Shown here: one piece after another, positions 12,001-18,000 of the stretch | Layout of the letters: each line of letters starts with the position of its first letter | Position numbering within the stretch: the stretch's first letter is position 1 | Origin: an uncultured delta proteobacterium | GTDB lineage: Bacteria; Myxococcota; Myxococcia; Myxococcales; Anaeromyxobacteraceae | Assembly: GCA_963828255.1 (NCBI GenBank) | Contig: CAWHDZ010000027.1 | Location: forward strand, 128,001-192,000 | Reading direction: 5' to 3' | Length of the DNA stretch: 64,000 nucleotides | Made by a program: the position numbers

Positions 12001-15000
12001 AACTGGCGGCGGAGTTGAAGCCCCGGACGGTGGTGCCGACGCGGACGGTGGTGACCCGGGTGGAACGGACGGTTCCGGAAATTCGCCCAGGCGAACTTTG
12101 GGCGCCCCGGTCGGAGGTGGAGCGGCCCGTCGTGGAGCGGACGGTCGTGGAGCCGATGACCGCGACGTCGAGCCGCATGCACATCTCGGTTTCCCGGGAG
12201 TTCCTGGCGCTCCTGAAGAAGGCAAGGGCGGGGCAGTCGCACGTGCAGCCAGGAGCAACCGACGAGCAGGTCCTCACCGCTGCGCTCGAGTTGCTCATCG
12301 AGAAGCAGGCGAAGCGGAAGGCCTGCGTGCCGGCCAGGGTGAAGCGCGAGGTCGTGAAGCGAGACGAGGGGAAGTGCCAGTGGAAACTCGCCGACGGTGG
12401 GGTCTGCGGAGCGACCGCGAGGCTGGAGATCGACCACGTTCAGCCACGGGGGAAGGGGGGACCATCAACGGTCGAGAACTGCCGCGTCCTTTGCCGGTCC
12501 CATAACCTCGAAGCCGCCCGCCAGACCTACGGCGACGCGCACATGGACCTGTTCACCCGCTCATCCCCGGGCGACGCCCCGCTGGCGCGGGAGGAAGTGG
12601 CGCCATACGGGGAGCGCGGCGAGACGGGCCGGACCGTCCCACCGACCCGGGGACGGTGTTACCCTGCCCCCCCGTGCGCCTCGACTCATACGGCTGGCTC
12701 GTCGTCCTGCAGATCGCCCTCGCGATCCCCACCCTCCTCTCGCTCATCTTCGTCGCGGCCCCCTACGGGCGGCATGCGCGGGACGGATGGGGGCCCACCA
12801 TCCCGGCACGCATCGGCTGGATCGTCATGGAGTCGCCGTCGGTCTGGTTCTTCGCCTGGGTCTACTTCCTCGGCCCGAATGCGATGCAGCCGGTGCCGCT
12901 CTGCTTCCTGGCGATGTGGCAGCTCCACTACCTCTACCGCTCCCTCATCTTCCCGTTCCTCATCCGGGCCGAGGGGCGCCGCATGCCGATCACCATCCCG
13001 GCCATGGCAATCGCCTTCAACCTGCTCAACGACTGGGTGAACGCGCGCTGGATCTCGTCCGTGGGAACCTACCCGGCGGACTGGTTCCTCTCCTGGCAGT
13101 TCCTCCTCGGCTCGGCCCTCTTCCTGGGAGGCTTCGCACTCAACGTCACCTCCGACCGGACGCTGCGCAACCTGCGCGCCCCCGGCGAGACCGGCTACAA
13201 GATCCCGCGCGGCGGCGCCTTCGAGTACGTCACCGCCCCCAACTACCTGGGGGAGATCGTGGAGTGGACCGGCTGGGCCATCGCCACCTGGTCGCCGGCC
13301 GGCCTGGCCTTCGCCCTCTACACCTTCGCCAACCTCGCCCCCCGCGCCATCACCCACCACCGCTGGTACCGGGAGCGCTTCCCCGACTACCCGCGGGACC
13401 GCAAGGCGCTCCTCCCCTTCCTGCTCTAGGTGCACGAACAGTGAAACTCTTGCTCACCGGCCCGTTCGGAAACATCGGCTCCCACGCCATCCCCGAGCTG
13501 CTCCGCGAGGGGCACCAGGTCCGCGCCTTCGACCTCGACAACCCGGCCACCCGGAAGGTGGCGAGGGACCTCGGCAAGAAGGTCGAGCCGGTCTGGGGCG
13601 ACGTCCGCGACGTCCGCGCCGTGGCCCGCGCCGTGGAGGGGATGGACGCCGTCCTGCACCTCGCCGCGATCATCCCCCCGGGCTCGGACGAGGATCCGGC
13701 CGCCACGCGCGCGGTGAACGTCGAGGGCACCCGCAACGTGGTGAAGGCCTGCCAGGAGCGCTCGCGCAAGCCCAGGCTGCTGCTCGCCTCCACCTTCGAC
13801 GTGCACGGCCACACCCAGTCGAAGCCCCCGCCGCGCCGGGTCGAGGACCCGGTGGTGGGGACCGATCCGTACACCGAGAGCAAGATCGACGCCGAGGCCC
13901 TGGTCCGCGACTCCGGCCTGGAGTGGTGCATCTTCCGCTTCGTCGACGTGCCCATCATCGGCCTGCGCGACCCGCACCCCATCATGTTCGAGATCGGGCT
14001 GCAGAACCGCATCGAGTCGATCCACGCGGACGACGCCGCCACCGCGCTGGCCCGGGCGCTTCGCACGGCGGAGGTCTGGGGACGGACACTCTTCGTGGGC
14101 GGGGGCCCGTCCTGCCAGCTCACCTACCGCGAGTTCCTGACGCGGATGCTCGGCGCCATGGGCATGGAGATGCTGCCCGACGAGGCCTTCAGCGACGCGG
14201 AGTACGCCACCGACTGGGTGGACAGCGCGGAGTCGCAGCGGCTGCTCCGCTACCAGCGGCGCAGCTTCGACGACATCACCGGCGACGTCGCGAAGTGCCT
14301 GGGCTGGAAGAAGGCCTTCGTGCCCATGGCCACGCCCATCGTGCGCCGGAAGATGCTCGAGATGTCGCCCTACTGGAAGCAGCGGCAGAAGTAAGGCGCG
14401 GCCACCAGGGCCTCGCCTCGCCTACTCGCCGCCGGCGCTGCGACGGCCGGCCGCGGGGGCGATGTGGGGCCGTCCGTGGCGCCCGGGGAGCACCTTGGCC
14501 GGACGCGCGGAGGGGCCGGCCGGGATGGCGTCGTCGGGCGGGTTGGTCGCGAAGACCCGGTTCACCAGCGGCGCCATGAGCCCGAGGCTGGTGGCCGCCA
14601 GCTTGCGCAGGGGGTTGCGGGAGATCTCGCCGTTGGGGAGCGGCTGGCTCCAGGCCTTGCCCAGGAGGTCCATGTACATCCCCACGGTCTGCCCCGCGGT
14701 GGCGAAGTCGAGCGTGGAGAGGATCTCGTCGGCGAGGCCGAACGGCATGGAGGTCATGATGGGGCCGCGCATGTACTCGGTGGCCCAGACACCGTCGGTG
14801 AAGTTCATGGCGCGGGCCTGCCCCGGGCCCACCCAGACGCGGTCGCCCGGCTTGTAGATCCGCTTCTCGAACTGCCCCTCGCCGAAGTAGTGCATCTCGC
14901 CGTCGATGACGGTGTCCCAGAAGCCGACGGCGTGGCGCCCCGAGTGCCCCTCCGATCCGATGGGGGTGCCCCAGATCATGAGGTATTCCATGGACGACGC

Positions 15001-18000
15001 GAAGTAGAGCTTCATCTGGATCATCGCGCCGCCGGCGATGCTGTACATCCACGGCTGCGAGCGGTCGATCCGGCCCGGGTAGGCATCCTCCCAGGCGTCC
15101 GCGATGGCGTCGAACATCTCCGGCTTGGGCTTGCCGATGCCCTGCATCGAGCACTCGTGGATGACGTCCGGGTCGAAGATGTAGTCCATGTCCTTGGGGC
15201 TCCGGTGGGGTGGGAGGGTGGGAGACGATCCCGACTTTACAACGTCTCGACGCGCTGCGCCCGCCCGGGGCGGCTGGGCGGGATGGTTCGGTTCCTCGGG
15301 CTGTCCGGGTCGTTCATCATCCAGGCCCATGCGTCCCGCAGCGACTGCTCCACGGGGCGCGGGGCGTGGCCGAGCTCGTCGCGCGCCTTCCGGTCCCGGA
15401 TCTCGAAGTCGACACCGAGCGTGTGCACCGCGTAGGGGGTGAGGAGGGAGCGTCGCCCGGTGACCTTCTCGAAGATCGGCGCGAAGGCGGCCAGCCCGGC
15501 GGCGATCCCGAGCGGGATGAAGACCCGGGGCGGCCTCCGACCGGCCAGCCTGGCCAGGATGCGCATCATCTCCCGGACGGTCATGCGCTCCCCGGAGAGG
15601 AGGTAGCTCTCGCCCTTGCGCCCTTTCTCGGCGGCCATCACGTGGCCGGTGGCGATGTCGCGGACGTCGATGAAGTCGTAGCACCCGTCCATCCCGGCCG
15701 GCACCGGGAAGCGGGAGAACAGGACGATGACCTCCCCGATCTCCGAGAGCCGGTAGTCGTACGGGCCGAGCACGTAGACCGGGTTCACGATCACCGCGTC
15801 CAGCCCCTCCCGCACCGCTTCGAGGACGATCCGGGACGCCGCCGCCTTGGCCTTCCCGTAGTCGCCGGGGGCGCGCTCCGGGTCGTAACCGGCCTCCTCG
15901 GTGAGCACCCCGCCCGGAGCCGGCTCGGTGAGGGCGTGGACGGAGCTTGTGTAGACCAGCCGCCGCACACCGGCCCGGCGCGCAGCCTCCACCACGTTGC
16001 GCGTCCCGTCCACGTTCACGGTCCGTACGATCTCGATGTCGAGCGAGCTGATGCTCACCACGCCGGCGAGGTGGAAGACCACGTCCACCCCCTCGAGGGC
16101 GGAGGGAAGCGTCTCGGGCCGGAGCACGTTGCCGCGGACCACCTCGACGTCGAGGCCGCGCAGCGCCCGGGCCTCGTCGCCCGGCTCCAGCAGCGCCCGC
16201 ACCTTCTTCCCGCGCCGCAGGAGTTCGCGCACCAGCACGTTGCCGAGGTGGCCGGTGGCGCCGGTGACGGTGGCGGTCTGGAAGTCCATGTTCCCGGGGT
16301 TCCTTTCAGGAGGAGGCGAGGAGCGCCTCGAGGGTCGCCTGCCGGTGGGCGAAGGTACGTGCCATCCGGGGGCCGACGAACGATCGCTCCGCCAGCTCCC
16401 CGAGCACGCCCATCCCCACATCGTATTCGAGAACGTCCCGGACCAACGTGCCGTCCCGCCCACCCCCCTCGCGGGCCTCGAACTCGTGGCGGTGCTCCCA
16501 GCCCCGGAACGGCCCCCGATCCTGGACGTCGGCGAAGTGCCGGAGCCGCTCGAACTCCACGATCCGCGCCACCCACGGGGTGCGGAACGGCAGGGGCGGG
16601 AAGAGCTTCACCGAGACCTCGATGACGGTGCCCACCCCCGCCTCGGGGCTGCCGGGAGCCGCGCCGGGCGGGGAGACCCGATCCACCCGGACGAGCTCCG
16701 CGCCCAGTTCCCGCGGCATGATCCGGGGCAGGTTGAGCGGGTCGGAGAAGAAGGCGAAGACCCGCGGGAGCGGAACGGGGACCCACTGCTCGAAGCGGAG
16801 TCGCTGGCTCATCGGGCGTGGTCCCTCACCTACCGCATGAGCGCCACGACCACCGGCCCCCAGGCCGTGAGCAGGATGTTGCCCACCGCGTAGGGCACCG
16901 TGTACCCGAGGACCGGGAGCTTGCTTCCGGCCGCGTCCTGCACGGCCCGGAGCGCGGCCGTGGTGGTGCCCGAGCCGGCCTCGGCGCCCAGCAGGATGAC
17001 CGGGTTCAGCTTGAGCACGAACCGGCCGAAGAGGAGCCCGATGGTGTGGGGGACGATGGACACGACCAGCGCCGCCCCGACCAGCCCCACCCCGGTCTCG
17101 CGCACGCCGGAGATGAACTGCGGCCCGGCGTCCAGCCCCACGATGCCGATGAAGGCCGCCAGCCCCACCGTGTCGAAGATCCAGAGGGCCGGCTCCGGGA
17201 TGCGCCCGAAGGTGGGCCGGGTGGAGCGGAGCCAGCCGAAGACCAGGCCGCTGATGAGGGCTCCTCCACTGGAGGTGAGGGTGATGGAGACCCCGCCGAC
17301 GGTGACGGCGAGGAGGCCGAAGAGCCCTCCCAGGAAGATCCCCATCCCCACGAAGACCATGTCGGTGGCGGGCGAGGGGCGGTCGGCGTAGCCGATGTCC
17401 CGGGCCACCCGCTCCACGTCGGGAAGATCTCCCTCCAGGGAGAGCAGGTCGCCGCGCTCGACGCGCGTGTTCCCGTCGAAGGGGACGTCCTGCCCGGCCC
17501 GGACCAGCCGCTGGAGCACGATCCCGTGCCCCTTCTCCTGGGCCAGCTGGCCCAGCGTCTGGCCGGCCACCTCCTTGCGGGTCACCACCACGTCGAGGTG
17601 GGCGTAGGGGAAGTCGAGGAGCCCGCGGTCGTCCACCTCCTGGCCCAGCCGGGCGAGATGCTCCACCAGCACGGTGCGGCGCGCGGTGACGGCGAGAACG
17701 TCCCCGGCCTGCACGCGGGTCTCCGGGTCGGGGTCGCTCACGATGCCCTCCCGCCGCATCCGCTCGACGAAGATGCGCCGCTCGGGAACCGAGCCCTCGA
17801 TCTCGCGGAGGGTCTTCCCGGCTGCGGCCGCAGAGACGACGATGGCCCGGGTGTCCCACTCCCCGTAAGCGGACGAGACGCCGGGCTCTGCGGCCTCCTT
17901 TCCGGCCAGCTTCAGCTCGAGGTCGCGGGCCTCCTTGCGGAGGTCGATCCCCATGAGGCGGGGCGCGAGCGAGGAGAGGTACCAGACCAGCGTGGTGGTG

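Follow-up and report, generated by a model that had tools for sequence, protein, structure and literature searches.

What role could neighbouring genes with a likeness to late sterol enzymes play in a bacterium without a squalene or oxidosqualene cyclase? The question is raised by a locus in the window, the whole 64,000-nucleotide stretch analysed here from an uncultured member of the Anaeromyxobacteraceae (window position 1 is position 128,001 of contig CAWHDZ010000027.1, an offset of 128000 and not 96000). A genome-wide survey's note had described the locus as five sterol-tailoring genes in two convergent units. The arrangement was confirmed in its coordinates and strands: all five open reading frames are intact, and 27 bp separate the two units (Table 1). 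The set itself had to be reduced to a three-gene core of reductase, SDR1 and ERG2-like cupin with an accessory SDR, and it is not tied to the lack of a cyclase.

Table 1. Features of the locus, in window positions.
Feature	Positions	Strand	Remark
Probable -10 element, TAnnnT box	12660..12665	+	8 bases upstream of GTG start
Steroid 5-alpha-reductase, SRD5A1/2/DET2 subfamily, 251 aa, membrane protein	12674..13429	+	Core gene
SDR1, extended SDR, 317 aa, candidate 3-hydroxysteroid oxidoreductase	13441..14394	+	Core gene
ERG2/sigma-1-family cupin, 255 aa, without N-terminal membrane anchor	14422..15189	-	Core gene
SDR3, HpnA/SdmB-like extended SDR, 350 aa	15237..16289	-	Probable accessory gene
SRPBCC-fold protein, 168 aa	16306..16812	-	Probably outside conserved cassette

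SDR1 starts 11 bp downstream of the reductase gene. A scan of the cassette for sigma-70 promoters and terminators found none. Judged from its sequence, the TAnnnT box is probably the -10 element of a leaderless transcript; its T, A and last T and the GTG start are invariant in 12/12 aligned genus copies. Contigs from RNA runs that cover cassette genes (3/4 runs) were set aside as mixed-strain contigs of flat depth, possibly derived from DNA.

The assignment of the first gene as a DET2/SRD5A-type steroid 5-alpha-reductase is borne out by profile and E values, which place it nearer to SRD5A1/2 than to enoyl-CoA reductases. It matches PF02544 (Steroid_dh) with E 1e-54 and 185 bits (cut-off 22.6), PbSRD5A (PDB 7C83) with E 3e-84, human SRD5A2 with E 6e-46 and an enoyl-CoA reductase with E 6e-14. 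The catalytic Glu and Tyr are kept as E53 and Y86, and 13/13 residues that hydrogen-bond NADPH in PbSRD5A (list in PMC7815742) are present; two loop or hydrophobic positions of the same site are altered. The Gln of the Q-E-Y signature, which is required in human SRD5A2, is replaced by Met52, with E53 and Y86 retained, and Met is found in 60/62 homologues. Plant DET2 also has Met at this position. A bacterial DET2 homologue complements a plant det2 mutant (PMC11131428), hence such reductases can accept sterol-type substrates. The reductase alone is far commoner than the cassette, being present in 105/331 Myxococcota and 40/151 Spirochaetia.

For the ERG2/sigma-1-like cupin, family and fold were upheld, but the isomerase role was not. 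The protein matches PF04622 (ERG2_Sigma1R) with E 3e-44 and 151 bits (cut-off 21) from profile position 21 onwards, and human sigma-1 with E 3e-28, with Y69, D92 and E138 aligned to the Tyr, Asp and Glu of the receptor pocket. Its predicted model superimposes on sigma-1 structures with an rmsd of 1.8 over 182 columns, and all top fold matches are sigma-1 proteins, for which PDB entry titles list structures with bound progesterone and DHEAS. No hydrophobic segment was found in the cupin (maximum 19-residue hydropathy 1.23), and the N-terminal transmembrane helix is absent. The TEY and HSGR..D motifs named in the survey are both present (T137-E138-Y139; H82-R85 and D92), and the Glu of the EYxRG motif is invariant, but T137 itself is not conserved. 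In the tree, the window cupin, which has FWDT and the sigma-1-type Asp position, belongs to its own clade (100 support) and is excluded from the xDDYF clade (99 support), whose motif we take to be that of fungal ERG2. A deep tie of the cupin clade to the animal sigma-1 receptor clade, with a support of 90, unstarred, is tentative. Because the clade with the fungal-type motif does not include the cupin, the C-8 isomerase label is not established; the database name 'C-8 sterol isomerase' is also attached to sequences outside this clade and therefore does not discriminate. One sister sequence, P0124, carries the cupin as a fusion with a domain of F420H2-dependent reductases. According to PMC8237579, bacterial ERG2/sigma-1 homologues had no known function at that time and no bacterial ERG2 homologue had been characterised; our literature search found no paper on a sigma-1 homologue from bacteria or on tests of its residues, and passages of PMC4919349 did not mention ERG2.

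The two SDRs of the window had been called 3-beta-HSDs, a designation that was not confirmed. Both are extended SDRs with a Ser-Tyr-Lys triad and exceed the cut-off of PF01073 (3Beta_HSD), but the Epimerase profile scores higher for both and no NCBIfam cut-off is passed; no characterised 3-beta-HSD is among their nearest solved relatives. In SDR1, S117, Y144 and K148 are invariant in 40/40 sequences; among solved proteins, its closest matches in sequence and in fold, with about 20% identity, are epimerases of sugar nucleotides. All of the top 50 fold matches of the predicted SDR1 model (pLDDT 94) are sugar epimerases, and atlas names are assigned automatically. Only 25/40 sequences have D/E at the acidic position that follows strand 2, and the cofactor preference was therefore not called. 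SDR1 occurs in 23/92 genomes of the family Anaeromyxobacteraceae, 23/23 of them with the reductase and 22/23 with an ERG2-like gene. SDR3 reaches 261 against HpnA (cut-off 368) and 225 against SdmB (cut-off 600), with SDR1 far lower. It lies beside the ERG2-like gene in 11/14 genus genomes; in a 12th it is cut short where a contig ends, and in two it was not found. Its relatives (38-44% identity) directly adjoin a 5-alpha-reductase in six genomes from three phyla and form one group with it at only 83/41 support; SDR3 is probably an accessory gene.

Outside the genus the commonest neighbour of the cupin is SDR2, a classical SDR found at 39/73 loci and absent from 14/14 genus loci; the window genus has lost it from the cassette locus. 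Its best solved relative is 5FYD/5GT9, presumably a 7-beta-hydroxysteroid dehydrogenase, and its NCBIfam scores are 114 bits for 7betaHSDH (cut-off 300) and 146 for mycolate reductase (cut-off 380). A classical SDR on contig C40 of the window genome (55% identity) was considered as a relocated SDR2, but seven family genomes carry a C40-type SDR together with a cassette SDR2, and it is therefore a separate paralogue. The 'START protein' of the survey has no START-family match: the sole profile that it matches is PF03364 (Polyketide_cyc), weakly (E 3e-7). Its gene is linked in 5/87 loci, namely in 5/14 genus genomes, possibly with a sixth across a contig break, and in 0/73 other ERG2 loci. A role as sterol carrier was dropped in view of this poor linkage, generic atlas clusters and the lack of a solved relative; the SRPBCC gene probably does not belong to the conserved set.

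The ERG2-family gene is indeed present in 14/14 genus genomes at 82-100% identity, and identities of the core genes within the genus are 76-99%. The cassette has a broader distribution than claimed: the survey counted only 22 genomes with reductase and ERG2 gene close together, 15 of them in this order, and we find the reductase at most 2.6 kb from an ERG2-family gene in 28 of the 87 genomes examined, 23 of these 28 being Anaeromyxobacteraceae or Myxococcaceae. The core genes recur together in Myxococcaceae and Micromonosporaceae in differing orders, often with SDR2. They are convergent in Anaeromyxobacteraceae and Micromonosporaceae, and four Myxococcaceae-type genomes have a co-directional run reductase-SDR2-cupin-SDR1. 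The Micromonosporaceae copies nest within those of the Anaeromyxobacteraceae and share their gene order, suggesting that the genes were transferred together. With kin that are not independent in all three comparisons, the reductase is found in 22/23 cupin-positive against 4/69 cupin-negative Anaeromyxobacteraceae, in 25/28 against 80/303 Myxococcota, and in 6/6 against 34/145 Spirochaetia. Genome G192 holds an independent ERG2-family lineage next to a reductase, a flavoprotein of the KstD superfamily and a protein with a SnoaL fold. Among 114 scanned proteins neighbouring the cupin no further recurring steroid family was found, and the papers searched did not contain the combination of reductase, SDR and ERG2/sigma-1 protein.

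The absence of a cyclase from the genus was confirmed (cyclase domain in 0/14 genomes). In the window genome, which is 99% complete, profile searches, one of them backed by a positive control, found no PF13243, PF00494, PF08491, PF01222 or PF00067; squalene synthase, epoxidase and oxidosqualene cyclase gave 0 matches, and neither a P450 nor KstD was found. Some genomes that carry the cassette have an oxidosqualene cyclase or one of hopanoid type, sterol makers among them, and the cassette is therefore not tied to cyclase absence. Related cassette-bearing Myxococcaceae retain oxidosqualene cyclase, squalene synthase and epoxidase, and no cassette gene was called in two of their cyclase loci (18-20 kb each). 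With regard to demethylation of their own sterols, cyclase-bearing Myxococcaceae have an SdmA-like Rieske protein in 0/4, a P450 in 3/5 and an unlinked ERG4/ERG24-family gene in 4/4 genomes. Within the family Anaeromyxobacteraceae a full cyclase occurs in 0/26 reductase-positive against 21/66 other genomes; without the window genus this becomes 0/12 against 21/66 (p 0.03, kin not independent). A general rule that the cassette replaces hopanoids is broken by the Micromonosporaceae, as 7/7 cupin-bearing members tested have a hopanoid-type cyclase. The window genome also holds FadL-type porins, one of them 34% identical to a gene adjoining a Myxococcaceae oxidosqualene cyclase, as well as a sphingolipid-like cluster.

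From the survey's proposal of remodelling of scavenged sterols, the role on external steroids is supported by the reductase residues, the lack of synthesis and degradation markers in the window genome and the linkage across phyla. We consider the chances about even that the cassette is horizontally shared and carries out reductive remodelling of the A ring of external steroids; scavenged steroids would most likely pass through 3-oxo-delta-4 intermediates to become 5-alpha-reduced products. Oxidation of the 3-beta-hydroxyl of a delta-5 sterol, with sitosterol, campesterol and cholesterol as candidates, would fall to an SDR, most likely SDR1, which would be co-transcribed with the reductase, and the double bond would shift to delta-4. 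By analogy with characterised relatives, the membrane reductase would then place a hydride from NADPH onto C5 to give a 5-alpha-3-ketone, which a further SDR could reduce to the 5-alpha-stanol; at the window locus this would be SDR3, in other genomes a different SDR. At the membrane, the sigma-1-like cupin may bind the steroid, either to ferry it between the enzymes or to move a double bond via Asp92/Glu138. We infer the substrates, the step order, the division of labour between the SDRs, the role of the cupin and the fate of the product, in the membrane or released. Several observations count against A-ring remodelling: SDR1 is closest to solved sugar-nucleotide epimerases, Met replaces the Gln of Q-E-Y, no transporter was found in the cassette, no reductase was found in 8/61 cupin-bearing genomes, the reductase adjoins the cupin only in Myxococcota and Micromonosporaceae, SDR2 is missing from the genus loci, and PbSRD5A activity was shown on progesterone, its preferred substrate, and not on long-side-chain sterones.

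Alternatively, the cassette may handle polar or oxidised steroids (7-oxo, 7-hydroxy, bile-acid-like or hormone-like) instead of intact membrane sterols, either to detoxify them or to use them as an electron sink, in the manner of the Bacteroidetes isoalloLCA cluster; we regard this as rather unlikely. The likeness of SDR2, the tightest cupin partner outside the genus, to 5FYD/5GT9 and 7betaHSDH would fit, as would the progesterone preference of PbSRD5A, the bile-acid substrates of the known bacterial reductase cluster and the absence of a linked lipid transporter. SDR2, however, stays far under the 7betaHSDH cut-off, scores higher on mycolate reductase and is missing from the genus locus; moreover, no 5-beta-reductase gene is present at the window locus, and this flavoprotein-type family does not recur among the neighbours of 82 loci. 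The mycolate reductase score, the best that SDR2 reaches, together with the breadth of the SDR families, a reductase family that takes in enoyl-CoA reductases and the P0124 fusion, could also point to a non-steroid enone as substrate, or to a long-chain lipid of terpenoid, acyl or sphingoid type. This is improbable, as the reductase matches steroid reductases far better than enoyl-CoA reductase and two unrelated families with characterised steroid-binding members travel together.

Genuine sterol isomerase activity of the cupin, C8-C7 or at a related B-ring position, with scavenged sterols tailored into hopanoid-substituting membrane lipids, appears unlikely. Its acidic pocket residues, the cyclase exclusion in the family, the sphingolipid-like cluster and the FadL-type porins would be consistent with such a role, but the sterols common in the environment carry a delta-5 and not a delta-8 double bond, the cupin has the sigma-1-type Asp position outside the xDDYF clade, the exclusion shrinks without the window genus, and cupin-bearing Micromonosporaceae have hopanoid-type cyclases. 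The lack of a characterised bacterial ERG2 homologue (PMC8237579) also argues against it. If the genes were relics of a sterol pathway of ancestral myxobacteria, or chance neighbours without a joint function today, this would account for the sterol synthesis genes kept by cassette-bearing Myxococcaceae and for the split into two convergent units. Such a reading is highly improbable given the conservation of the core genes across the genus, the nested Micromonosporaceae copies in the same order and the two cyclase loci free of cassette genes.

Stanol/stenol ratios serve to indicate that microbes have transformed sterols anaerobically (PMC7292411), and no paper naming genes for this transformation was found in our literature search. 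We hypothesize a link between the cassette and sedimentary stanols. Only tentatively do we extend A-ring remodelling to the view that these are stenol-to-5-alpha-stanol genes of oxygen-poor soils and sediments, in bacteria unable to synthesise sterols, that a sigma-1-type cupin converts steroids, and that stanols may replace hopanoids in the membrane of the genus. If this is true, the activity of the anchor-less cupin would reveal the original function of the ERG2/sigma-1 family. The cassette would offer a testable genetic lead on stanol formation in such habitats and offers defined genes for two questions, stanol formation and bacterial ERG2/sigma-1 function, which are directly testable since cultured Rugosimonospora strains (R. 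africana NBRC 104875 and R. acidiphila JCM 18304) carry the same three core genes.

Bacterial 5-alpha-reductases are already known, and the window reductase shares its subfamily, catalytic Glu/Tyr and NADPH site with PbSRD5A (7C83), human SRD5A1/2 (7BW1), plant DET2 and Leifsonia DET2; it differs from this group in the Met before the catalytic Glu and in being accompanied, within a cassette, by SDRs and a sigma-1-like protein. The HpnA and SdmB models both match SDR3 over its full length, but SDR3 stays under both cut-offs, stands apart from cyclase-linked HpnA in the tree and lies in a genome without the P450, cyclase and epoxidase for a demethylation pathway. With fungal ERG2 C-8 sterol isomerase and the myxobacterial ERG2 of sterol makers the cupin has the Pfam family, fold and EYxRG Glu in common; unlike them, it is anchor-less and forms a separate clade outside the xDDYF clade, and most carriers tested of window-type cupins (42/61) have no full cyclase. 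Its best solved relative is the animal sigma-1 receptor (5HK1, 8W4B), a steroid-binding cupin with which it shares C-terminal helices and the aligned pocket residues and from which it differs in being bacterial and in lacking the N-terminal transmembrane helix. A further parallel is the Bacteroidetes isoalloLCA cluster, in which an SRD5A-type reductase is likewise clustered with hydroxysteroid oxidoreductases (the HSDH there came from a search with a Ruminococcus 3-beta-HSDH as query). That cluster acts on bile acids, turning steroids made by others into 5-alpha products; the window cassette differs from it in its ERG2/sigma-1 gene, in the absence of a recurring 5-beta-reductase and in carriers that are not gut Bacteroidetes.

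The five genes that the genome-wide survey's note had placed here are intact. The window is C27:128001-192000 of an Anaeromyxobacteraceae genome with a size of 4.3 Mb, a completeness of 99% and a contamination of 6.6%. A TAnnnT box 8 bases 5' of the reductase GTG at 12674, invariant in all 12 aligned genus copies (the other two genus genomes lack the region on their contig), supports this start.

Genes of the cassette and its neighbours in the window
Feature	Position	Strand	Spacing
Steroid 5-alpha-reductase	12674-13429	+	
SDR1 (extended SDR)	13441-14394	+	11 bp past reductase
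ERG2/sigma-1-like cupin	15189-14422	-	27 bp between SDR1 and cupin
SDR3 (HpnA/SdmB-like extended SDR)	16289-15237	-	47 bp between cupin and SDR3
SRPBCC	16812-16306	-	16 bp between SDR3 and SRPBCC

The SRPBCC gene, 17 bp after an aspartate-alanine antiporter gene, occupies this position in 5/14 genus genomes and in 0/73 other loci. At 10 genus loci, the window locus not among them, SRPBCC/SDR3 are preceded upstream by a gene whose 286-aa product has no annotation, begins with a signal-like stretch and gave no match in a Pfam search (L051:4482-5342). An HNH-domain repeated element (25 tblastn matches genome-wide; window copies at 11556-12650 and 19961-21019, both +) has one copy inserted directly upstream of the probable -10 box of the reductase, between the box and a divergent GNAT gene; this insertion is shared with G058, the closest relative of the genome.

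The reductase matches Pfam Steroid_dh with an E-value of 1e-54, and its best solved relatives are the bacterial PbSRD5A (3e-84), human SRD5A2 (6e-46) and enoyl-CoA reductase (6e-14). For PbSRD5A, PMC7815742 demonstrates progesterone reduction and lists the NADPH residues and a Q-E-Y motif. The window protein keeps all 13 NADPH hydrogen-bonding residues listed there as well as E53 and Y86; the Gln of the motif is replaced by Met52, likewise Met in 60 of 62 homologues from the examined loci. A bacterial 5-alpha-reductase is known from a Bacteroidetes bile-acid cluster (bioRxiv 10.1101/2021.01.08.425963), Leifsonia DET2 rescues Arabidopsis det2 (PMC11131428), and 5-alpha-reductase activity is cited for Treponema denticola (PMC11301207).

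The PF04622 match of the cupin begins at profile position 21, hence the membrane anchor is missing. In the alignment with sigma-1, Y69, D92 and E138 fall on the pocket residues Tyr103, Asp126 and Glu172, which are important in the receptor. Its AlphaFold prediction has a mean pLDDT of 79, with residues 219-255 unreliable, and a fold whose top matches are sigma-1 structures only, including progesterone and DHEAS complexes. A quick 84-row tree, built from 8 own sequences and those 76 of 150 representatives that contain both motifs, puts the protein into a bacterial clade with a support of 100 and does not settle its deeper placement. A clade with xDDYF, presumably the mark of fungal ERG2, comprises 25 rows (support 99), excludes the window protein and includes that of G192; the source names of the tree sequences do not settle whether the motif is such a mark. 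Sister to the window cupin's clade is P0124, an F420H2-dependent reductase domain fused to an ERG2/sigma-1 domain. As of the PMC8237579 supplement, bacterial ERG2 homologues were uncharacterised and proven isomerases lay in one clade only. Membership of the ERG2/sigma-1 family is thus certain, with isomerase as no more than a candidate activity.

Both SDR1 and SDR3 contain the Rossmann glycine motif and the Ser-Tyr-Lys triad, and neither passes any curated profile cut-off. SDR1, which among solved structures resembles sugar epimerases only, is found in 23/92 family genomes; every one of the 23 has the reductase, and 22 have the cupin. SDR3 orthologues are limited to the genus and one other genus; relatives of 38-44% identity directly adjoin a reductase in G401, G411, G418, G409, G104 and G185. 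In a tree of 39 rows (redundant genus copies dropped), the window SDR3 groups with these relatives and an SdmB-like gene, separate from cyclase-linked HpnA, though with a support of only 83/41.

GTDB genomes hold at least 79 cupin loci (identity 56-99%) in Myxococcota, Spirochaetota, Actinomycetota and Chloroflexota. For 87 genomes, counted after removal of a duplicate, we recorded which genes lie no further than 2.6 kb from the cupin; 3 of these genomes carry more distant ERG2 types, and in 20 a flank is shorter than that distance. The reductase occurs in 28, SDR1 in 35, SDR3 in 11, SRPBCC in 5, another 3-beta-HSD-like SDR in 3, and the classical SDR2 in 39 but in 0/14 of the genus. Facing the cupin, the order is reductase-SDR1 in the window and Rugosimonospora and reductase-SDR1-SDR2 in other Anaeromyxobacteraceae; four Myxococcaceae-type genomes have reductase-SDR2-cupin-SDR1 in one direction. 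Micromonosporaceae cupins are nested within those of Anaeromyxobacteraceae (supports 96 and 99; quick tree of 55 rows, 27 near-copies left out). Genome-wide, the reductase was found in 53/61 cupin carriers; as 80/303 cupin-negative Myxococcota and 34/145 cupin-negative Spirochaetia also have it (kin not being independent in these counts), it is much commoner than the cassette.

A search of the genome found no cyclase, squalene/phytoene synthase, squalene epoxidase, ERG4/ERG24, P450 or KstD; the ERG4/ERG24 search gave matches in 5/5 other genomes as positive control. With these markers absent, both sterol synthesis and KstD-type degradation of sterol rings seem to be lacking in the organism. 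Across the 92 family genomes, a full-length cyclase is present in 0/26 reductase-positive genomes versus 21/66 others, so the two do not overlap, partly an effect of kinship. The cassette itself is not restricted to non-producers, because 12 of the 61 outside cupin carriers hold an oxidosqualene-cyclase-like gene; 7 Micromonosporaceae have a cyclase that is probably hopanoid-type judging by its score alone, and 42 have none. Of five oxidosqualene-cyclase-like genes scanned, two pass TIGR03463 and three score 686-806 of 851.

Squalene epoxidase-oxidosqualene cyclase fusions occur in G391 (L192:4608-8063, adjoining SdmA-like and SdmB-like genes) and G192 (L193:9613-12996). The latter genome has two cyclases, and its xDDYF-type ERG2 adjoins a SnoaL-fold protein, a PRK07121/KstD-superfamily flavoprotein and a 5-alpha-reductase (L184:8960-12726); the flavoprotein family is also near the cupin in locus L092. 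A FadL/TodX-family outer-membrane protein, possibly a lipid uptake channel (window 560-1921, -; two paralogues elsewhere in the genome), shares 34% identity with the gene that immediately follows the oxidosqualene cyclase in three loci of Myxococcaceae (L188, L189 and L152). On contig C3, a serine-palmitoyltransferase-like gene (497 bits, cut-off 640), a GNAT-like protein, an extended SDR and a fatty-acid hydroxylase form a row that looks like a ceramide synthesis cluster (L127:4228-9365). A large multiheme cytochrome cluster, of a type typical of extracellular electron transfer, spans window 37339-60834 (-), one protein having 21 paired CXXCH matches.

The reading that we favour, about as likely as not, is that the cassette converts scavenged sterols to 5-alpha-stanols. 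SDR1 would oxidise the delta-5-3-beta-ol to the 3-oxo-delta-4 form, the reductase would use NADPH to yield the 5-alpha-3-one, and a second SDR would form the 5-alpha-stanol, with the cupin as putative steroid carrier or isomerase. The reductase step alone rests on characterised close relatives, the remaining steps on guilt by association. Against this reading speak a cassette without a transporter, the Gln to Met exchange, the likeness of SDR1 to sugar epimerases and the loss of SDR2 from the window locus.

That the cassette acts instead on polar or 7-oxygenated steroids is unlikely. The candidate isomerase activity of the cupin may be that of a true C-8 isomerase with products for membrane use, which we consider improbable, and a non-steroid lipid as substrate is doubtful indeed. 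A relic or chance neighbourhood is scarcely credible. The cassette is a real, transferable, uncharacterised unit that probably modifies steroids.

Every gene family in it is already known, and a bacterial reductase-plus-HSDH cluster has been published. Our literature search, with most subscription journals and bioRxiv supplements outside its range, found no paper on the combination; the accessible part of PMC2817430 mentions ERG2 homologues for Plesiocystis and mycobacteria only. The proposed route to 5-alpha-stanols would mirror the DET2 step described in PMC11301207.
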